From positions 1 through 38,769 of IMG/VR virus record IMGVR_UViG_2778261204_000005: 38,769 nucleotides of DNA, one strand, 5' to 3'. The position numbers and the translations under genes were made by a program. Positions 10,756-37,761 of the stretch are shown in pieces. Origin of the DNA: a virus. Lineage: Duplodnaviria; Heunggongvirae; Uroviricota; Caudoviricetes. A model generated the notes under the pieces. It saw nothing but the letters and a program-made list of their open reading frames with translations, was not told the DNA's origin and did not search any database. Each line of letters begins with the position of its first letter. Within the stretch, counting starts at the first letter, position 1.

Positions 10756-11703
10756 ATGAGCAATACAGCAAAAATCTACGATTTCAGCGCCGCACACGAG
10801 CGCAGGAGCAACAGGATGGAGAACCAGAAAACTGGTTACATTCCGTTGTACCGGAGCATTCTGAAACAGTCATGGGCGAAAGATGTTTATCTTCGCACCC
10901 TGTGGGAAAACCTTCTCCTGAATGCCGCCAGAAAGCCATACAAAGCGAATTTCAAAGGTCATGAATGGCATCTGCAACCCGGTCAACTGGTTGTGACAGC
11001 AGCTGATTTAGGTCTTCAGTTATGCGACAGGCATGGCAAGCCAGCAAGCCGTGATCAGGTTGAGCGGATGCTTCAGGTTTTTGTGAAAGAGGGGATGATC
11101 TCCATTGATGGAGAGAAGCAAAAAGGTCGTGTGATAACCATCACAAATTACCATGAATATGCTCAAAAAATGGACAATTTACCCGCACATGAAGCCGCAC
11201 AAACAACCGCACATGATGCCGCACATGACGAAGACAGTAATGGCGCGGCTTTCAGCGCACATGCCGCACATGAAAGCGCACATGAAGCCGCACAAACAAC
11301 CGCACATCATGAACAAGAAGGTATTAACAAGAATATAAATAATACCCCCCTACCCCCCAATGGGGGAGGCGATGGGCAGGTTAAACCTGAACGTCGCAAG
11401 GCAGAACGAATCGACTACGAATCCTTCCTGAACGCCTACAACACCGAAGTCGGTGACAGACTGCCACACGCTGTTGCGGTCAACGAGAAACGCAAACGCC
11501 GCCTGAAGAAAATCATCCCACAACTGAAAACGCCAAACGTGGACGGTTTCAGAGCGTATGTCAGGGCGTTTGTGCATCAGGCCAAGCCGTTTTACTTCGG
11601 AGACAACGACACTGGCTGGACGGCAGATTTTGATTACCTGCTGAGGGAAGATTCGTTAACGGGAGTACGGGAAGGGAAGTTTGCAGACAGGGGGATTGCA
11701 TGA
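10756..11703 (+). CDS. replication initiator, O-like (ori iterons inside the gene)
   Basis: N-terminus [10 protein letters not shown] resembles lambda O MTNTAKILNF; internal repeated HEAAQTTAH peptide encoded by DNA iterons. Confidence 0.7.
11183..11345. repeat. origin of replication: tandem iterons (CCGCACATGA-type units) followed by an AT-rich stretch
   Basis: At least five directly repeated ~10-12-bp units inside the O-like gene, then a ~35-bp AT-rich segment. Confidence 0.65.
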
Positions 11704-29844: not shown

Positions 29845-31239
29845 TTGGCTACATGGCAACAGGCTGGTAATTCAGGCGCGCTTCTTGCCGGGTTAGGCGG
29901 CATGAACTCCAACGCTCCAAGAGCAAGTGATGCAGACGCCACGCTTGCATACATTCGACAGAATAACGAGATGGAGCGTTCAGGACGTAATAACGTTGGC
30001 TTGCAGGCTTTGCAGGGCATTTCATCTGTCATGGATATGTATAAGCAGATGGATCAGCAGAAGCGACAGCAAGAGTTTCAGCAGGCTTATGCTGATGCAT
30101 ATACATCTGGTGACCGCGATGCAATGCGAAAACTGGCATCACAGTATCCTGAGCAGTTTGACGCTGTAAGAAACGGCATGAAATTTGTCGATGAAGACCA
30201 GCGTTCCACTGTCGGCACACTGGCAGCAAGTGCCAGACTGGCAGCTTCATCTCCAGAAGCCATGATGTCATGGTTGCAGAACAACTCATCTGAGCTTACT
30301 CGTGCCGGAGTAGATCCTCTGGATGTGGCGAAAATGTATCAGCAAAATCCACAAGGTTTCACAGAGTTTGTTGATCACCTTGGAATGGCTGCGCTTGGTC
30401 CAGAACAATATTTTCAGGCGCAAGACAGAATCGTTGGGCGTGAGATTGATCGCGGAAAACTTGCAGAGACAATCCGCAGCAATCAGGCTGGCGAGGCGCT
30501 AACAGCACGAGGTCAGAACATCACGATGCGCGGTCAGGATTTATCTGCTTCTACTGCGCGACGCGGGCAGGATTTGGCAATGCAGCGAGCGTCAACAAGA
30601 GGAACCACTGGGAGTGATGAGCGTACAGTTCAGTTATCAGATGGCAGAACTGTAACGGTTGGCGGGAAACTTCACGGCGCTGGGGCAAATGCGTTCTACG
30701 AAGGCATCGACAACGAGGGGAATATGGTTCGCGTTCCTGCCAGTTCAATCGCAGCGCCTGCAACATCGTCTGCATCAGCACAAAACTATGCCATGAAGAA
30801 GGATATCGACGCGATCGCAAATGCAGACGCTTCTGCTCTCGATTTCATGACAGGAATGACCGGCGGCGCAGGTAACCCGGCAATTGGTGCTGATGTTCGC
30901 AGCCGATTAACAGGAAAAGAGCAGCGCCAGTTATATAACTCAGCACAACGTATTCAGGGCAGAATGCAGAATCAGGGTGTGGCGGCAGCAAGGGACATGG
31001 GGGCCAGTGGTATTAACACCGTTGCAGAAGCGAAGATGTATTTTCAGGGGATGCCGCAGGTTGACTATTCAAGCCCGGAGGCTATGCAGCAGTCGATTCG
31101 TGAGATTCAGGAATACACCAACAATTACAACCAACAATATAACGTTAATGTTGGTAAATCTCAGCGGCAGCAATCTCAACCTGCACAGGTATCACAGCCA
31201 GCAGCCAGCAGTAACTTTTCTTCACTATGGGGTGATTAA
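29845..31239 (+). CDS. ejection protein gp20-type
   Basis: 464 aa, position. Confidence 0.65.
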
Positions 31240-33236
31240 TGGCTAAAGCATGGAAAGATGTTATCGCCTCTCCACAGTATCAGGCGTTAGCACCAGAACA
31301 AAAAGCGCAGGCTCAGGAGCAATACTTCAATGAAGTCGTGGCCCCGCAAGCCGGAGAAAATGCAGAGCAGGCTAAGCAAGCTTTCTATGCAGCCTATCCA
31401 TTGCCATCCGTGCAGCCAGTGGAGACACAGCAACCAGTAGCACAGCAACAACCACAGCAAAGTGGATTTATGTCTGATCTTGGCGAAGCAGTAAAAGAGA
31501 CTGGTCGCGGACTGGTGCAGGCTGGCGTGAACGTGGCAAACATACCTGCATCAGTTGCCGATGCTGTAACAAGCGCGGCGGCTTGGGCTGGCGGTAAACT
31601 CGGCATTGGCGATGGGACATATCAACCAGCGCCACGAGTAACAACGCAGGGATTAGAGCAGGACTTTGGCCTTCAGCAAGGCGCGCTGACTCCACAAACT
31701 ACAGAGGGCAGGGTATTTGCTGAGGCATTGCCTTACCTCACTCCTGCTGGCATTGAGAGAGCGGCAACACAGGCACCAACACTCGCTGGTAGAATCGCTC
31801 AGGGTGCAACTCGCCTTCTCGCTGAAAACGCAGTCGGGTCACTTGCTGCAAATAGTGCGAAAGATGATGCGGAAGCACTCGCTACCGATTTAGGCGTTGG
31901 CGTTCTGGCTGGCGGCGCTATTAACGCTGCCGGACGTGGATTAGGCGCTGCTTATCGTGGCGTTCGTGGTGCTATTGCACCAGAAGCGCAGCAGGCTATC
32001 AGATTTGCAGAGCGTGAAGGAATTCCTCTGCACACCACAGACCTGTTACAACCAACTTCCCGCGTCGGAAAAATGGCGCAGACTACAGCAGAAAATATCC
32101 CTCTGGCTGGCACAAGCGGAATGAGAGCAACGCAACAGGAAGCGAGAAGCCAGCTGGTGCAGAGATTTGCCGATAAATTCGGTGAGTATGATCCAGCGGT
32201 TGTTATTGACAGCCTTAAAGCGAAAACATCAGGAATTCGTCGTGCCGCCGGTAATCGACTGGAGCAGGTTCAGAATGCTATGGCTGGAGTAAACATTCAG
32301 CCTGCGCGAGCAATTCAGCAGATTGATACAGAAATATCTAATCTGCAGAAGCTTGGTAAGGTCGCTGATAACGAGACTATTTCAAAACTTCAGTCATATC
32401 GTGATGAGCTTGTTCGCAATGCTGGTCCTGATGGTCCGGTAAATCTGGACTTGAAGCAATTAAGCGATCTGCGCAGCCAGTTCAGAATGGACGTGAAGGG
32501 TGAGCGACCAGTGTTACCAAACCGTTCCGATGCCGCCATTCAGCGCGTTTACAAGGCGATGACCGACGATATCAATGGTGCCATTGGTCAGAATCTTGGC
32601 AACGATACTCTCCGTAAATATCAGCAGGCCAATGCCGTCTACGCTGACGAAGCGGCGAAACTCAAGAATACCAGGCTGAAGAATGTTCTCATGAAAGGCG
32701 ATCTGACGCCGGAAGTTGTCAACAACATGCTATTCAGCAAGAACAAATCTGAAATTAAGACGCTGTATAACTCAGTTGGTCGTGTTGGCAGGGCGCAAAT
32801 GCGCAATGGCATCATTGGAAAGGCGATGGAGAAATCTGGCGGATCCCCTGACCAGTTCCTTCGGCAGCTTAACATCCTGCAAAACCAGACTGGCATCACA
32901 TTTAAAGGTCAGGAAGCCGCTTATCTGAAAGGATTGAAAAACTACCTGCAATCCACGCAGCAGGCTGCAAAAGCGGCAGTAACAACACCAACAGGGCAGC
33001 AAACCATCCCGTTCATTATCGGATATGGGACAGCAATGAACCCTGCGACAACTGGCGCAGCGGTAAGCTACGGACTTCTTACTCGCGCCTATGAGAGCGA
33101 GCCATTCAGAAATGCAATGCTCCGAATGGCAAACACACCACGCGGATCAACAGCGTTTGAGAAAGCCATGCAGCATGCGCAAAAGGCCATTAACGCTCTG
33201 ACTCAGGGTGCCAAGTCTGATGCGTTGTCAGAATAG
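31239..33236 (+). CDS. ejection protein gp16-type
   Basis: 665 aa, position. Confidence 0.65.
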   Translation: MAKAWKDVIASPQYQALAPEQKAQAQEQYFNEVVAPQAGENAEQAKQAFYAAYPLPSVQPVETQQPVAQQQPQQSGFMSDLGEAVKETGRGLVQAGVNVANIPASVADAVTSAAAWAGGKLGIGDGTYQPAPRVTTQGLEQDFGLQQGALTPQTTEGRVFAEALPYLTPAGIERAATQAPTLAGRIAQGATRLLAENAVGSLAANSAKDDAEALATDLGVGVLAGGAINAAGRGLGAAYRGVRGAIAPEAQQAIRFAEREGIPLHTTDLLQPTSRVGKMAQTTAENIPLAGTSGMRATQQEARSQLVQRFADKFGEYDPAVVIDSLKAKTSGIRRAAGNRLEQVQNAMAGVNIQPARAIQQIDTEISNLQKLGKVADNETISKLQSYRDELVRNAGPDGPVNLDLKQLSDLRSQFRMDVKGERPVLPNRSDAAIQRVYKAMTDDINGAIGQNLGNDTLRKYQQANAVYADEAAKLKNTRLKNVLMKGDLTPEVVNNMLFSKNKSEIKTLYNSVGRVGRAQMRNGIIGKAMEKSGGSPDQFLRQLNILQNQTGITFKGQEAAYLKGLKNYLQSTQQAAKAAVTTPTGQQTIPFIIGYGTAMNPATTGAAVSYGLLTRAYESEPFRNAMLRMANTPRGSTAFEKAMQHAQKAINALTQGAKSDALSE

Positions 33237-33325: not shown

Positions 33326-33586
33326 TTAGCTGCTGTCTTTTTTATATAGCTCTTTGAGCGTATCAAAGACAATTTTCTTAACCATATCAGATTGTTGTTC
33401 TGCCATACGCTCTGCATCGTCAATGTAAACGGATGCAGAGCTTTGTTTAGCCAACGATTCTTCAATCGCTGCAATTATCTCTGAGTTCAGCGACCTGTTA
33501 TTCATCTTCGCACGCTGTTTAATTTTCGCGTGGAGTTCATGCGGAAGTCTCAAGTGAAACTGCGCCTCGTCGTATTTGCTGTACAT
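33326..33586 (-). CDS. mnt: Mnt-like ribbon-helix-helix repressor (Arc/MetJ family)
   Basis: FHLRLPHELHAKIKQRAKMNNRSLNSEIIAAIEESL and C-terminal DAERMAEQQSDMVKKIVFDTLKELYKK resemble P22 Mnt; start at internal ATG. Confidence 0.7.
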   Translation of the reverse strand: MYSKYDEAQFHLRLPHELHAKIKQRAKMNNRSLNSEIIAAIEESLAKQSSASVYIDDAERMAEQQSDMVKKIVFDTLKELYKKDSS

Positions 33587-33707
33587 CCTTGATGCCTCAC
33601 CAGTTGGGTGGAATGGCATCGTAACCTACTGGATAAATACTCAATAGTACCATTTCGGTATGCAATCACATCATGGTTGCATCATATCATTCGTCTGGAG
33701 CAATGAA

Positions 33708-35924
33708 ATGTCAGATATCACCGCCAATGTTGTGGTCAGCATGCCTTCGCAACTCTTCACTATGGCTCGTTCTTTTAAAGCCGTAGCCAATGGCAAAATT
33801 TATATCGGTAAAATTGACACTGACCCGGTAAATCCTGAAAACCAGATTCAGGTTTATGTGGAAAACGAAGACGGCTCTCACGTTCCTGTTTCGCAACCAA
33901 TCATCATTAACGCTGCTGGTTACCCTGTATATAATGGACAGATTACCAAGTTCGTAACTGAGCAAGGCCATTCTATGGCTGTTTATGATGCGTATGGGGC
34001 GCAGCAGTTTTATTTCCCTAATGTGCTGAAGTATGACCCTGATCAGTTCAGTCAGCAATTAGCTTCATTTGACCCTCCAGGAACAAACCTGATTGGTACC
34101 AAGGGCGGTGTTAATCTCACGCAATACCTTGATCGTGTATTCATGTTTATCGACGATCTGCCTGGCGTAGATAAGACGGGCGTTCTTGATAGCTCTGCAG
34201 CGCTAAACACCGCCATCACCACCTACAGCGGCGTGGGTGTGGAGTTTATTGGCAATCCATCCAGTACGTATCTCCTTACCGGCACCGTACAATGCATTGG
34301 AGTCAGTAATATCACGCTGAACTTCAATGGCGCGAAGATAATGGATAACGTCCAGGGTTTTATCCCAACTTCTGGTAACCGCGCAAACCACACTTTTGTA
34401 GTTTACAACGCTAAAAAAATTCGTATCACAAACTTTGTTTATGATGTAGCCCCCACCCGCGCCGACGCCACGTTAAGCAACCCGTCCGCACCGTCAACGG
34501 TAATGCTTTGGGTGGGGGGGCAATACCTTGGCAGTGCAATGACAAGTGATGTTGAAATAGATCGCATCTACAACGTGGAAAATAAGGGGCTCAATAACGG
34601 GTTCGTTATCTGCGGGATGGGTGAGCTCGACGGCATCCACGTACATGACTGCCTGATAAAAGGTGGCGCGTGGAAATTTGGTTGTAACTTCGAATACGGT
34701 CTTGCACCTGTAGACCCAGCAACTAATTCAACACTAACTAACGGCCTTCACCCGTACAATATCTACGTAGAGCGATTTAACGTTGAGAATGTTCCTACTT
34801 GCGACGGTTGGTGGCGTACAGCATCTTGTTATAATGCTAAGTTCATAAACTGCACCGCGTATAACACACGCTCTCCGATTTATGTCTATTCGGGGGATAG
34901 GGGGATAACACGATACTCGCAGAACGTAACATTTGAAAACGTAAAGACTAAATATAGTGATGATGTCACATACACCAATGCCAGTGTACAGGTTATTATC
35001 ACGGATAAAGATGGCTCTACGGGGGACACGCTGCCGTCATGGTCAAACTTCGACCATACGTTTATGTTTATAAACTGTGAAATCGGCTCCACTAGAGGAG
35101 CAAACTCCAGTTCATATCGTGTATTCGGCAACATGGGTAAGGTGCATGTCATAGGGGGTATTGTAGAGAACTCCTACTTTGGGGCGCACTGTCAACCATC
35201 GCTCAATCCGACATTCCTGTCTGATGGGGCTATTATTTTCGAAGGAGTAGTATTCAAAAATTGCTTCCAGTTCCTACGCATGGGCGGGGTAAAAGGCTGG
35301 CGTGTCGAAAATTGTACATTTAAACGACATTTATGGGGTTCCACTAGCGCGGCGCAAGTAGACCCAGCCGTATTTTTCAACGGTACAACTGGTCTTCTTA
35401 GGGGTAATACCTGGAACGCACTATCAACTGGTAGTGGGGCGACATGGTATCTTAATTGCCAATCTAGTACCATTCGCATGCGGGATAATGACTTCACGTG
35501 TCCGTCTGTTTATAACTTCCCGGTTATATGGTCGTCTGTGCTGCCGGTGTTAATCGGTAATGGTAACTTGTCCAATACCACATACCTTATTAGCCCCGAT
35601 GTTAACTCCCCGGCCATCTACGGTGAACCTTGTCCGTCCAAAACACTGGAGTCGATAACCGGGTCCGCAATTAACTTCAATATATCAAGTATTTGGACCG
35701 CTAGCGGGACTAAGACCATTAACTCCATCACCGGCGGCAAGCCAGGAGATAAAGTTATCATAAACCCGACGACGGGAGCGGCAAACGTCACATTTGAGTT
35801 TGGTACGGTCACCGGTGAAAACCGCATAGTTCCTCGTACCGTAGCCACCGAGGTAAAAACAGGCACGGGATGGTCAAAAACATTTATCAAGATGTCAGGA
35901 GCACAAGGATGGTGGGAAGTGTAG
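33708..35924 (+). CDS. tailspike protein: P22-type N-terminal head-binding domain fused to a distinct beta-helix receptor-binding domain
   Basis: [47 protein letters not shown] matches P22 gp9 N-terminus; remainder is G/N/T-rich; GGAG RBS. Confidence 0.85.
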
Positions 35925-35929
35925 AGCGT

Positions 35930-35953
35930 AAGGGGTGGGCACCCCTTATATTT
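35930..35953 (+). terminator. terminator-like hairpin after tailspike
   Basis: AAGGGG-loop-CCCCTT followed by AT-rich tract. Confidence 0.5.
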
Positions 35954-35998
35954 ACTTAGCCTGATACAAATCACCACCGTATCCGAACCACCATATAA

Positions 35999-36334
<336 letters not shown>

Positions 36335-36367
36335 CTCGGTGGCCAGTTTTTGTTGACCACTTCAGGA

Positions 36368-37525
36368 TCACTCTACCTTCCCATCAAGACAGTCTGCCCA
36401 CCACTGCATCATTTCTCTGCGTTTATCGAGATACTGAGCATGGTTGTAAATCCCGCGCACAGATCCGCCGTTGGCATGTGCCAGTTGCACTTCAATAGCA
36501 TCAGCAGGCCATTCGTGCTCGTTCATAATTGTGCTGAATTCATGCCTGAATCCGTGACCGCTTTCCAGACCCTCATAGCCGATTTGTTTGATCACAAGCA
36601 GCACCGCGTTCTCGCAGATCGGCTTCTTCTTATCGTTGCGCCCGGCAAAAACAAACTCTGATACTGGTTTGGTGATTGAGCTTAGCGTAGTGAGAAGTTC
36701 AACCACCTGGTCTGACATCGGGACCACATGAATTTTGCGTCCCTTCATCACACTGGCGTCAATGGTGATAATCCTGTTTTCAAAATCGACGTTCTTCCAT
36801 AGCATGGAACGAAGCTCTTTTGTTCTGAGGGCTGTGTAGCGTAAAACTTTGGTCGCAATGAGCGATACGATGCTTCCTGAAAATGTTGCCAGTGCTTTGT
36901 TGAATGCCGGGATCTGGTCTGCAGGAAGAAACGGGAAGTTCTTCTTGCGGTATCCCTTCATGGCGTCAGCAAGGTCAGGTGCCGGGTTATATTTAGCCCT
37001 ACCAGTAACAATAGCGTAACGGAAAACCTCGCCGCATCTTCTGCGTGCTTTGTTGGCTCGCTCCATTGCGCCGCGATCTTCAAATCTGCGGATTACTTCC
37101 AGCAGTTGCATCGGCTCAATATCCTGAATTTCAAGACCGCCGATGATGGGTAAAATGTCGTCATCAAACATTTTGGCAAGTTCAGTTGCATAGCCTACTG
37201 ACCAGACTTGCTTCTTGTGCTCGTACCATTCCTTGTAAATCGCACTAAATGAATTGTTGTTAGACGAAGCCTTTTTCGCCTTTACCGGATCGATGCCAAC
37301 CGAGATGTCTTTCCTCGCAGTCCATGCCTTATCCCTTGCTTCCTGCAAAGTCATAAGCGGATATTTTCCGACAGTCAGGATTTTCTCCTTACCGTCAATC
37401 TTGTAGCGAAGCTGCCATACCTTTTTCCCTGACACAGGGACATAAAGGTACAGGCCATTACCATCGAGAAGGCGGTATGGTTTTTCTTTCGGCTTTGCTG
37501 CTTCAATCTGCTTAACGGTGAGCAT
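36368..37525 (-). CDS. intS: tyrosine integrase, IntS (KplE1/CPS-53-type)
   Basis: Catalytic C-terminal region (HGFRHEF, HANGGSVRGIY); start set at ATG (MLTVKQIEAAKPKEKPYRL) to give the 385-aa length recalled for K-12 IntS; track ORF extends to 37561 from a GTG. Confidence 0.9.
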   Translation of the reverse strand: MLTVKQIEAAKPKEKPYRLLDGNGLYLYVPVSGKKVWQLRYKIDGKEKILTVGKYPLMTLQEARDKAWTARKDISVGIDPVKAKKASSNNNSFSAIYKEWYEHKKQVWSVGYATELAKMFDDDILPIIGGLEIQDIEPMQLLEVIRRFEDRGAMERANKARRRCGEVFRYAIVTGRAKYNPAPDLADAMKGYRKKNFPFLPADQIPAFNKALATFSGSIVSLIATKVLRYTALRTKELRSMLWKNVDFENRIITIDASVMKGRKIHVVPMSDQVVELLTTLSSITKPVSEFVFAGRNDKKKPICENAVLLVIKQIGYEGLESGHGFRHEFSTIMNEHEWPADAIEVQLAHANGGSVRGIYNHAQYLDKRREMMQWWADCLDGKVE

Positions 37526-37686: not shown

Positions 37687-37761
37687 TGGTGTCCCCTGCA
37701 GGAATCGAACCTGCAATTAGCCCTTAGGAGGGGCTCGTTATATCCATTTAACTAAGAGGAC
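37687..37761 (-). tRNA. argW: tRNA-Arg (anticodon CCU), argW-type; its 3' end is attR
   Basis: 75-nt cloverleaf read on minus strand: acceptor stem GTCCTCT/AGGGGAC, anticodon loop CT-CCT-AA, T-arm GGTTCGATTCC, 3' ACCA. Confidence 0.9.

Follow-up and report, generated by a model that had tools for sequence, protein, structure and literature searches.

What surface glycan does a P22-like tailspike engage when its receptor domain resembles none of the classical ones, and does it cleave what it binds? The question is posed by a gene at 33708-35924 in IMG/VR virus record IMGVR_UViG_2778261204_000005 (Caudoviricetes), of which positions 1 to 38,769 were analysed at full length; this stretch of 38,769 nucleotides (nt) is referred to below as the window. 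We consider it likely that the gene encodes the tailspike of an HK620/Sf6-like prophage, that its receptor domain binds O-antigen and most likely hydrolyses it, and that this domain is an exchangeable module directed at a rare Escherichia coli serogroup. The coordinates of the gene, its domains and its neighbours are collected in Table 1.

The gene is enclosed by an open reading frame (ORF), 33660..35924(+). Judged from its sequence context, the ATG at 33708 is the true start, because a ribosome-binding site (RBS; GGAG at 33697-33700) lies 7 nt 5' of it, because Sf6 gp14 and P22 gp9 align from residue 1, and because the resulting product is identical to WP_244577405.1; the in-frame ATG at 33660 was ruled out as a start by the position of the RBS and by the N-terminal homology. 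The protein is already public, under the generic database name 'phage head-binding domain-containing protein [Escherichia coli]', and the gene was also called on an independent assembly in which the locus is identical (L001). Residues 1-113 covered the full Pfam model PF09008 Head_binding (E=5.1e-66; 220 bits, cut-off 24), and the anchor aligned to residues 1-119 of Sf6 gp14 (E=2e-66) and to residues 1-117 of P22 gp9 (E=5e-50); the initial annotation, which had placed the gene at 33708-35924 and ascribed its first ~110 residues to a P22 gp9-type domain, was right on both counts. Foldseek, supplied with the predicted model, retrieved the Sf6 and P22 anchor domains as well. At the DNA level, identity to other P22-like tailspikes was 89-94% over the first 341-361 nt of the gene and ended abruptly there, both in 29 phage records and in 1,137 of 5,426 complete E. 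coli genomes. The anchor, the beta-helix receptor domain described below and a position in the late operon after gp7, gp20 and gp16 are the features by which a P22-like (Lederbergvirus) gp9/gp14 tailspike is recognised, and the window protein shows all three.

Past the anchor, resemblance to the known members ceased. The P22 gp9 endorhamnosidase shares the anchor and the modular plan, but the window protein has no match to the P22 receptor domain past ~residue 117. Sf6 gp14 and HK620 gp9 have receptor domains without detectable sequence similarity to that of the window protein (13% identity in structural alignment), and their catalytic residues do not map onto it; the specificity must therefore differ. 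The receptor domain matched no Pfam, PHROG or NCBIfam family. Sequences in the PDB, searched with phmmer and with a 45-sequence profile, gave no match beyond the anchor: only residues 1-119 were aligned, the full-length P22 and Sf6 chains aligning to ~residue 119 and the HK620 chains remaining unmatched. No match of the window tailspike to PF13229 Beta_helix or PF12708 Pectate_lyase_3 was obtained at E<=0.1; the former was matched by 3 of 45 members of the receptor-domain family.

The fold of the domain was addressed with an AlphaFold2 model of the monomer, built from an input alignment of 45 homologues (mean predicted local distance difference test score, pLDDT, 87.6; predicted template modelling score, pTM, 0.77). 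The head-binding domain occupied residues ~26-110 of the model, followed by a neck of three short helices (residues 111-144) and by a long series of short beta strands from residue ~178 to ~618, where pLDDT was mostly above 90. Residues 1-25 were disordered in the monomer; low pLDDT at residues 1-25 and 107-111 is compatible with segments that become ordered only in the assembled particle. The ~620 residues after the anchor were rich in glycine (10.5%), threonine (10.2%), asparagine (8.6%) and serine (8.2%).

When the model was compared with known structures, the matches obtained were the AlgE4 mannuronan epimerase (score 28.0; root-mean-square deviation, rmsd, 2.3 Å over 333 residues; 14% identity), the Klebsiella K1 capsule lyases (27.9 and 26.9), an alginate epimerase/lyase (26.7), the HK620 tailspike (25.5), phi29 gp12 (25.4) and the Det7, 9NA and CBA120 tailspikes (22-24). 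Because these scores are too close to one another, and the identities only 9-16%, no enzyme family can be assigned from the modelled structure. Homology to AlgE4, suggested by the stretches 'EYGLAPVDP' and 'NGLHPYN', was rejected: hhalign of the family profile against the AlgE4 A-module, a sequence verified against 2pyg_A, returned a probability of 0.85%, and the AlgE motif YG(F/I)DPH(D/E) is absent from the tailspike sequence. With 13-14% identity, the resemblance to AlgE4 and the K1 capsule lyases is one of fold only. The initial annotation had read the region after the anchor as a G/N/T-rich beta-helix unlike the receptor domains of P22, Sf6 and HK620, had called for structure prediction, and had named near-identity to a characterised tailspike as the observation that would overturn this reading. 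Composition and model agree with the beta-helix, whose structural matches lie among tailspikes and lyases or epimerases; the sequence searches aligned the anchor alone; and no near-identical characterised tailspike was found, the receptor domain having no PDB sequence hit and, as its only hit among the phage records, a hypothetical protein of phage phD2B (45% identity).

Conservation scored over the 45 homologues, with identities down to 31%, pointed to a candidate active site. The best-conserved part of the receptor domain was residues ~260-480, whereas the distal helix (residues 481-620) was the most variable, with 18-30% identity in distant members. E329, H348, R370, D397, R402, D435, E458 and R471 were invariant, and E306, Y330, Y350, R398, K413, K415 and W445 were conserved in at least 90%; within residues 306-471 there are four carboxylates of the invariant class and some ten conserved basic residues. 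Lying over successive rungs of the beta-helix, this cluster resembles an active-site groove and is a candidate for one. The characterised tailspikes of P22, Sf6 and HK620 are O-antigen endoglycosidases with two or three carboxylates. By analogy, our best estimate is that the receptor domain would be an endoglycosidase, retaining or inverting, which uses two of E329, D397, D435 and E458; that it cleaves a glycan at all is suggested by the predicted fold together with the conserved residues.

The distribution of the receptor domain bears on the identity of its target. In an exhaustive HMMER scan, 47 of 1.84 billion representative proteins matched the domain at E<=1e-3. It was present in 8 IMG/VR contigs, in only one of 50,697 phage records (Lelliottia phage phD2B, at 45% identity) and, among species-representative genomes, in only one Providencia and one Steroidobacteraceae metagenome-assembled genome (MAG). 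A distant-mode blastn search found it in none of the 5,426 complete E. coli genomes, so that there is none from which to read a serogroup. Full-length relatives with the same anchor were recovered from E. coli draft genomes (P0001, P0002 and P0003; 92%, 91% and 77% identity). The Steroidobacteraceae relative (JAQSWD010000009.1; L008:5930-7651) is 33% identical across query residues 155-738; as this MAG is not from the Enterobacterales, the family extends beyond enteric phages. The domain occurred on at least five different N-terminal anchors: 12 of 45 members carried PF18668 (TSP1/gp66-type), 3 of 45 PF03906 (T7 tail-fibre N-terminus) and 2 of 45 PF12571, and some members had anchors without a Pfam match. 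It belongs to a small family without a characterised member, common to several unrelated phage types.

Two members illustrate the combination of the domain with other anchors. The product of phD2B_0049 shares 45% identity with the window protein across 99% of the receptor domain, and its predicted structure was the one close relative that Foldseek found among predicted viral structures (template modelling scores 0.79/0.93, rmsd 2.1 Å, 44% identity); it differs in lacking the P22 anchor and in belonging to a lytic podovirus of the T7 supergroup (Autographiviridae, Molineuxvirinae), in which it is annotated as an uncharacterised 'hypothetical protein'. The literature on phD2B consists of one genome announcement, and a literature search on accession and run numbers found nothing. 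The second, P0004 (contig logan:SRR9218197_3164), is 91% identical to the window protein over residues 125-738 and ~95% over residues 246-738, but has an unrelated N-terminal anchor without a Pfam match and belongs to a lytic, ~44-kb Kagunavirus-like siphovirus; its gene follows the tape-measure and distal-tail genes of its contig, which is 87-89% identical to Escherichia phage EM1, Raoultella phage RP180 and vB_EcoS-Ro145clw and whose matches include Kagunavirus records. Likeness to P0004 begins at residue 125 of the protein and at nt 412 of the gene. Within the receptor module the window protein is itself a mosaic: residues 138-245 are 100% identical to the prophage lineage P0001 and 78% identical to P0004, whereas residues 246-738 are 87-90% identical to P0001 and 94-96% to P0004. 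This switch in identity, seen in a comparison of window 34119-35921, implies a recombination breakpoint inside the predicted beta-helix near residue 245.

Evidence for the nature of the glycan came from the genes that follow the tailspike in related prophages. The IMG/VR prophage fragments L009 and L012, whose tailspikes are 78% and 51% identical to that of the window, each carry three genes on the opposite strand after the tailspike: one for a GtrC-like protein of 466 or 464 residues that has several hydrophobic segments and matches no Pfam family, gtrB for a 308-residue GT2 glycosyltransferase (PF00535), and gtrA, of 120 residues (PF04138). This is the gtrC-gtrB-gtrA arrangement. In P22 and in Shigella serotype-converting phages, gtrCBA glucosylates the O-antigen and keeps phages that depend on it from superinfecting. 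In the window, no intact gtrA, gtrB or gtrC lies between the tailspike and int, and only a gtrC remnant is left. Window 35855-36018, which spans the tailspike end, a hairpin and this remnant, has 94.5% DNA identity to L009 5148-5311; a fragment of an IS3-family insertion sequence (IS) then extends to the int stop codon, and homology to L009 returns at 36365, the 3' end of int. The gtrC remnant, the IS3 fragment and the point at which L009 homology resumes show that ~2.75 kb of gtrCBA has been replaced in the window prophage, and with gtrCBA lost, the lysogen probably does not modify its O-antigen by way of this prophage.

A comparison of L005:8146-8723 with window 35850-36428 revealed the same scar, made up of the gtrC remnant, the IS fragment and, after them, the int 3' end for its first 60 nt; over window 35850-36100 the two sequences share 98.8% identity. 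L005 is the prophage that encodes P0002 and lies beside dacD-sbmC, not at argW, and its tailspike DNA is only ~84% identical; it seems that recombination transferred the right arm, with its scar, from one prophage to another. In E. coli LD93-1 (L003; NZ_CP047662.1, 3201141-3217220), argW holds only a prophage remnant with torI, a frameshifted ISEc52 transposase, a hypothetical gene, an acyltransferase-family gene and intS, so that a different, oac-like conversion gene lies where L009 has gtrCBA.

The gtrC of L009 type is as rare as the receptor domain: it had no hit in the phage collection, and complete E. coli genomes matched the gtrA and gtrB genes alone, both the receptor domain and this gtrC being absent from all 5,426. 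Tailspike domains of Lederbergvirus prophages track the O-serogroup of the host (Pas et al. 2023, PMC10408124), and Kaguna- and Lederbergviruses exchange O-antigen-specific domains (PMC10408124). Given this background, the gtrCBA linkage in related prophages, the gtrC remnant in the window and the shared rarity, a rare O-antigen is favoured over a capsule as the receptor; the earlier wording, 'O-antigen or capsule', is thereby narrowed to its first half, a capsule being less favoured. A receptor found across the Enterobacterales (enterobacterial common antigen or colanic acid, for example) was considered on account of homologues in Enterobacter, Lelliottia, Citrobacter and Providencia, and was ruled out by the rarity of the domain, its Steroidobacteraceae relative and its link to a type-specific gtrC.

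We propose the following mechanism. Residues 1-115 would plug a presumably trimeric spike into the tail hub, and residues ~148-738, comprising the beta-helix and the C-terminal beta domain, would bind the O-antigen of the host. Most likely the O-antigen would also be cut, letting the virion work its way down to the outer membrane; hydrolysis would draw its acid/base pair from the candidates E329, D397, D435 and E458, set in a groove with conserved arginine, lysine, histidine and aromatic residues. The module as a whole would be a cassette that other phage types also carry, targeting a rare E. coli serogroup.

Several points weigh against this reading. The linkage of gtr to the tailspike is circumstantial; the P22-like phage CUS-3, whose tailspike is an endosialidase, combines the same anchor type with a capsule-specific domain; and K1-dependent Kagunaviruses target a capsule from the chassis that shares the present domain. 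They bear on the principal competitor, in which the receptor domain is not an O-antigen hydrolase but a lyase of capsule or exopolysaccharide, acting by beta-elimination on an acidic polysaccharide (a K antigen or similar). The top structural matches do act on uronates and the putative groove is rich in basic residues, but the suspected AlgE-like motif failed, as did the profile comparison with AlgE4, and we regard a lyase as unlikely.

That the domain is an adhesin, which only binds its glycan or modifies it otherwise (by deacetylation, for example), appears improbable to us: invariant carboxylates and basic residues are packed densely on consecutive rungs in homologues that are only 31-45% identical, as is typical of an active site, a Pfam scan of the tailspike found no SGNH or esterase domain, and the characterised tailspikes on the P22-type anchor are enzymes. 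Replacement of the neighbouring gtr cassette by an IS3 fragment, and reduction of the immI region to a lone mnt-like gene, might instead suggest that the tailspike gene is a decaying relic of a defective prophage, without current function. We give this very little credence, as the ORF is intact and of the same length as its homologues (738-739 residues), every family-invariant residue is kept, RBS and terminator are present, and the prophage retains both att sites, an integrase and a full set of late genes. O-antigen binding with probable hydrolysis is thus the reading that we retain. A bolder version of it can be put forward only tentatively: the domain may represent an undescribed carbohydrate-active family, a beta-helix depolymerase with E329/D397/D435/E458 and a belt of Arg, Lys and His, specific for an acidic O-antigen found in a rare serogroup of E. 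coli and spread as a cassette over at least five anchor types, the prophage copy having recently recombined internally with a lytic Kagunavirus-like phage.

The genomic setting is that of an integrated element. Direct repeats of 22 nt (20/22 identical) at 1690-1711 (attL) and 37687-37708 (attR) bound a prophage of ~36 kb, which takes up nearly the whole window; a LacY-family permease gene (1-1248) lies to its left, and the intS-argW-yfdC segment on the right is 98% identical to E. coli chromosomes. The late region encodes P22-type coat, gp4, gp10, gp26, gp7, gp20 and gp16, then a lone Mnt/Arc-like gene, and then the tailspike. The closest phage was HK620 (97% identity, with 56% of the first 24 kb covered), followed by CUS-3 and Sf6. 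On the basis of the att sites, the P22-type late genes and HK620 as the closest phage, the element is a mosaic Lederbergvirus-type prophage at argW, with the tailspike in its canonical position.

Two further observations were made in the window. The Mnt/Arc-like gene at 33326-33619 is accompanied neither by arc nor by an antirepressor gene; in the related prophages of P0002 and P0003, arc and a KilA-N/P22_AR antirepressor lie upstream of the tailspike. Within the ORF at 10756-11703, positions 11184-11311 hold four overlapping copies of a repeat with a ~12-nt period (CGCACATGAAGC / CGCACAAACAAC), which are probably the replication-origin iterons in a lambdoid O-type replication gene.

Table 1. 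Positions in the window of the tailspike gene, its domains and the surrounding features
Feature	Coordinates	Strand	Basis
Ejection-protein genes, P22 gp20-like and gp16-like	29845..33236	+	PF16928; PF26808 and PF16928 on the identical locus L001
Mnt/Arc-like repressor gene (immI remnant), between gene 16 and tailspike	33326..33619	-	PF03869, PF11423
Tailspike gene, 738 aa plus stop (= WP_244577405.1)	33708..35924	+	ORF, exact database match, RBS
P22-type head-binding (tail-hub anchor) domain, aa 1-115	33708..34052	+	PF09008; N-terminal matches to Sf6 gp14 and P22 gp9
Short helical neck/linker, module junction, aa 116-147	34053..34148	+	AlphaFold2 helices 111-119, 125-128, 137-144; onset of similarity to P0004
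Predicted right-handed parallel beta-helix, receptor-binding and presumed catalytic domain, aa 148-620	34149..35567	+	
Most conserved stretch, candidate active-site residues, aa 306-471	34623..35120	+	E306, E329, H348, R370, D397, R398, R402, K413, K415, D435, E458, R471 invariant or >=90%
C-terminal beta-strand domain, aa 621-738	35568..35921	+	AlphaFold2 strands 654-737, pLDDT 88-95; conserved G677, G680, R706, G719, G734, W735
Terminator-like hairpin, directly after the stop codon	35928..35949	+	9-bp stem; kept in L009 and L005
gtrC remnant (type-specific O-antigen glucosyltransferase), last 22 codons only	35952..36018	-	Translated C-terminus matches the GtrC-like protein of L009
IS3-family (ISEc52-like) fragment, 350 bp of the 3' end, in the gtrCBA slot	36015..36364	+	Pfam rve domains; 91% identical to the IS copy of E. 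coli LD93-1
Prophage integrase gene (IntS-like)	36368..37525	-	Pfam Phage_integrase, Arm-DNA-bind_3; L001 gene call; 98% identical to E. coli intS loci
tRNA-Arg(CCT) gene argW, contains attR 37687-37708	37687..37761	-	ARAGORN

The modularity of anchor and receptor domain is well described (PMC10408124), and the architecture of this tailspike, its module junction, the exchange of its receptor domain across phage chassis and the linkage to gtr are all well known; the near-identical copy in a lytic siphovirus and the gtr cassette erased by an IS illustrate known processes and leave current understanding unchanged. What the tailspike contributes is a single further host-range module; the biology is not new. 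Receptor domains of tailspikes decide which strains a phage infects, and they find use both as reagents specific for a serogroup and as building blocks of engineered phages or tailocins. This module would be useful for host-range work and serotyping once its glycan is identified; that identification would contribute one more entry to those that pair receptor domains with serogroups, and might add an enzyme family as well.
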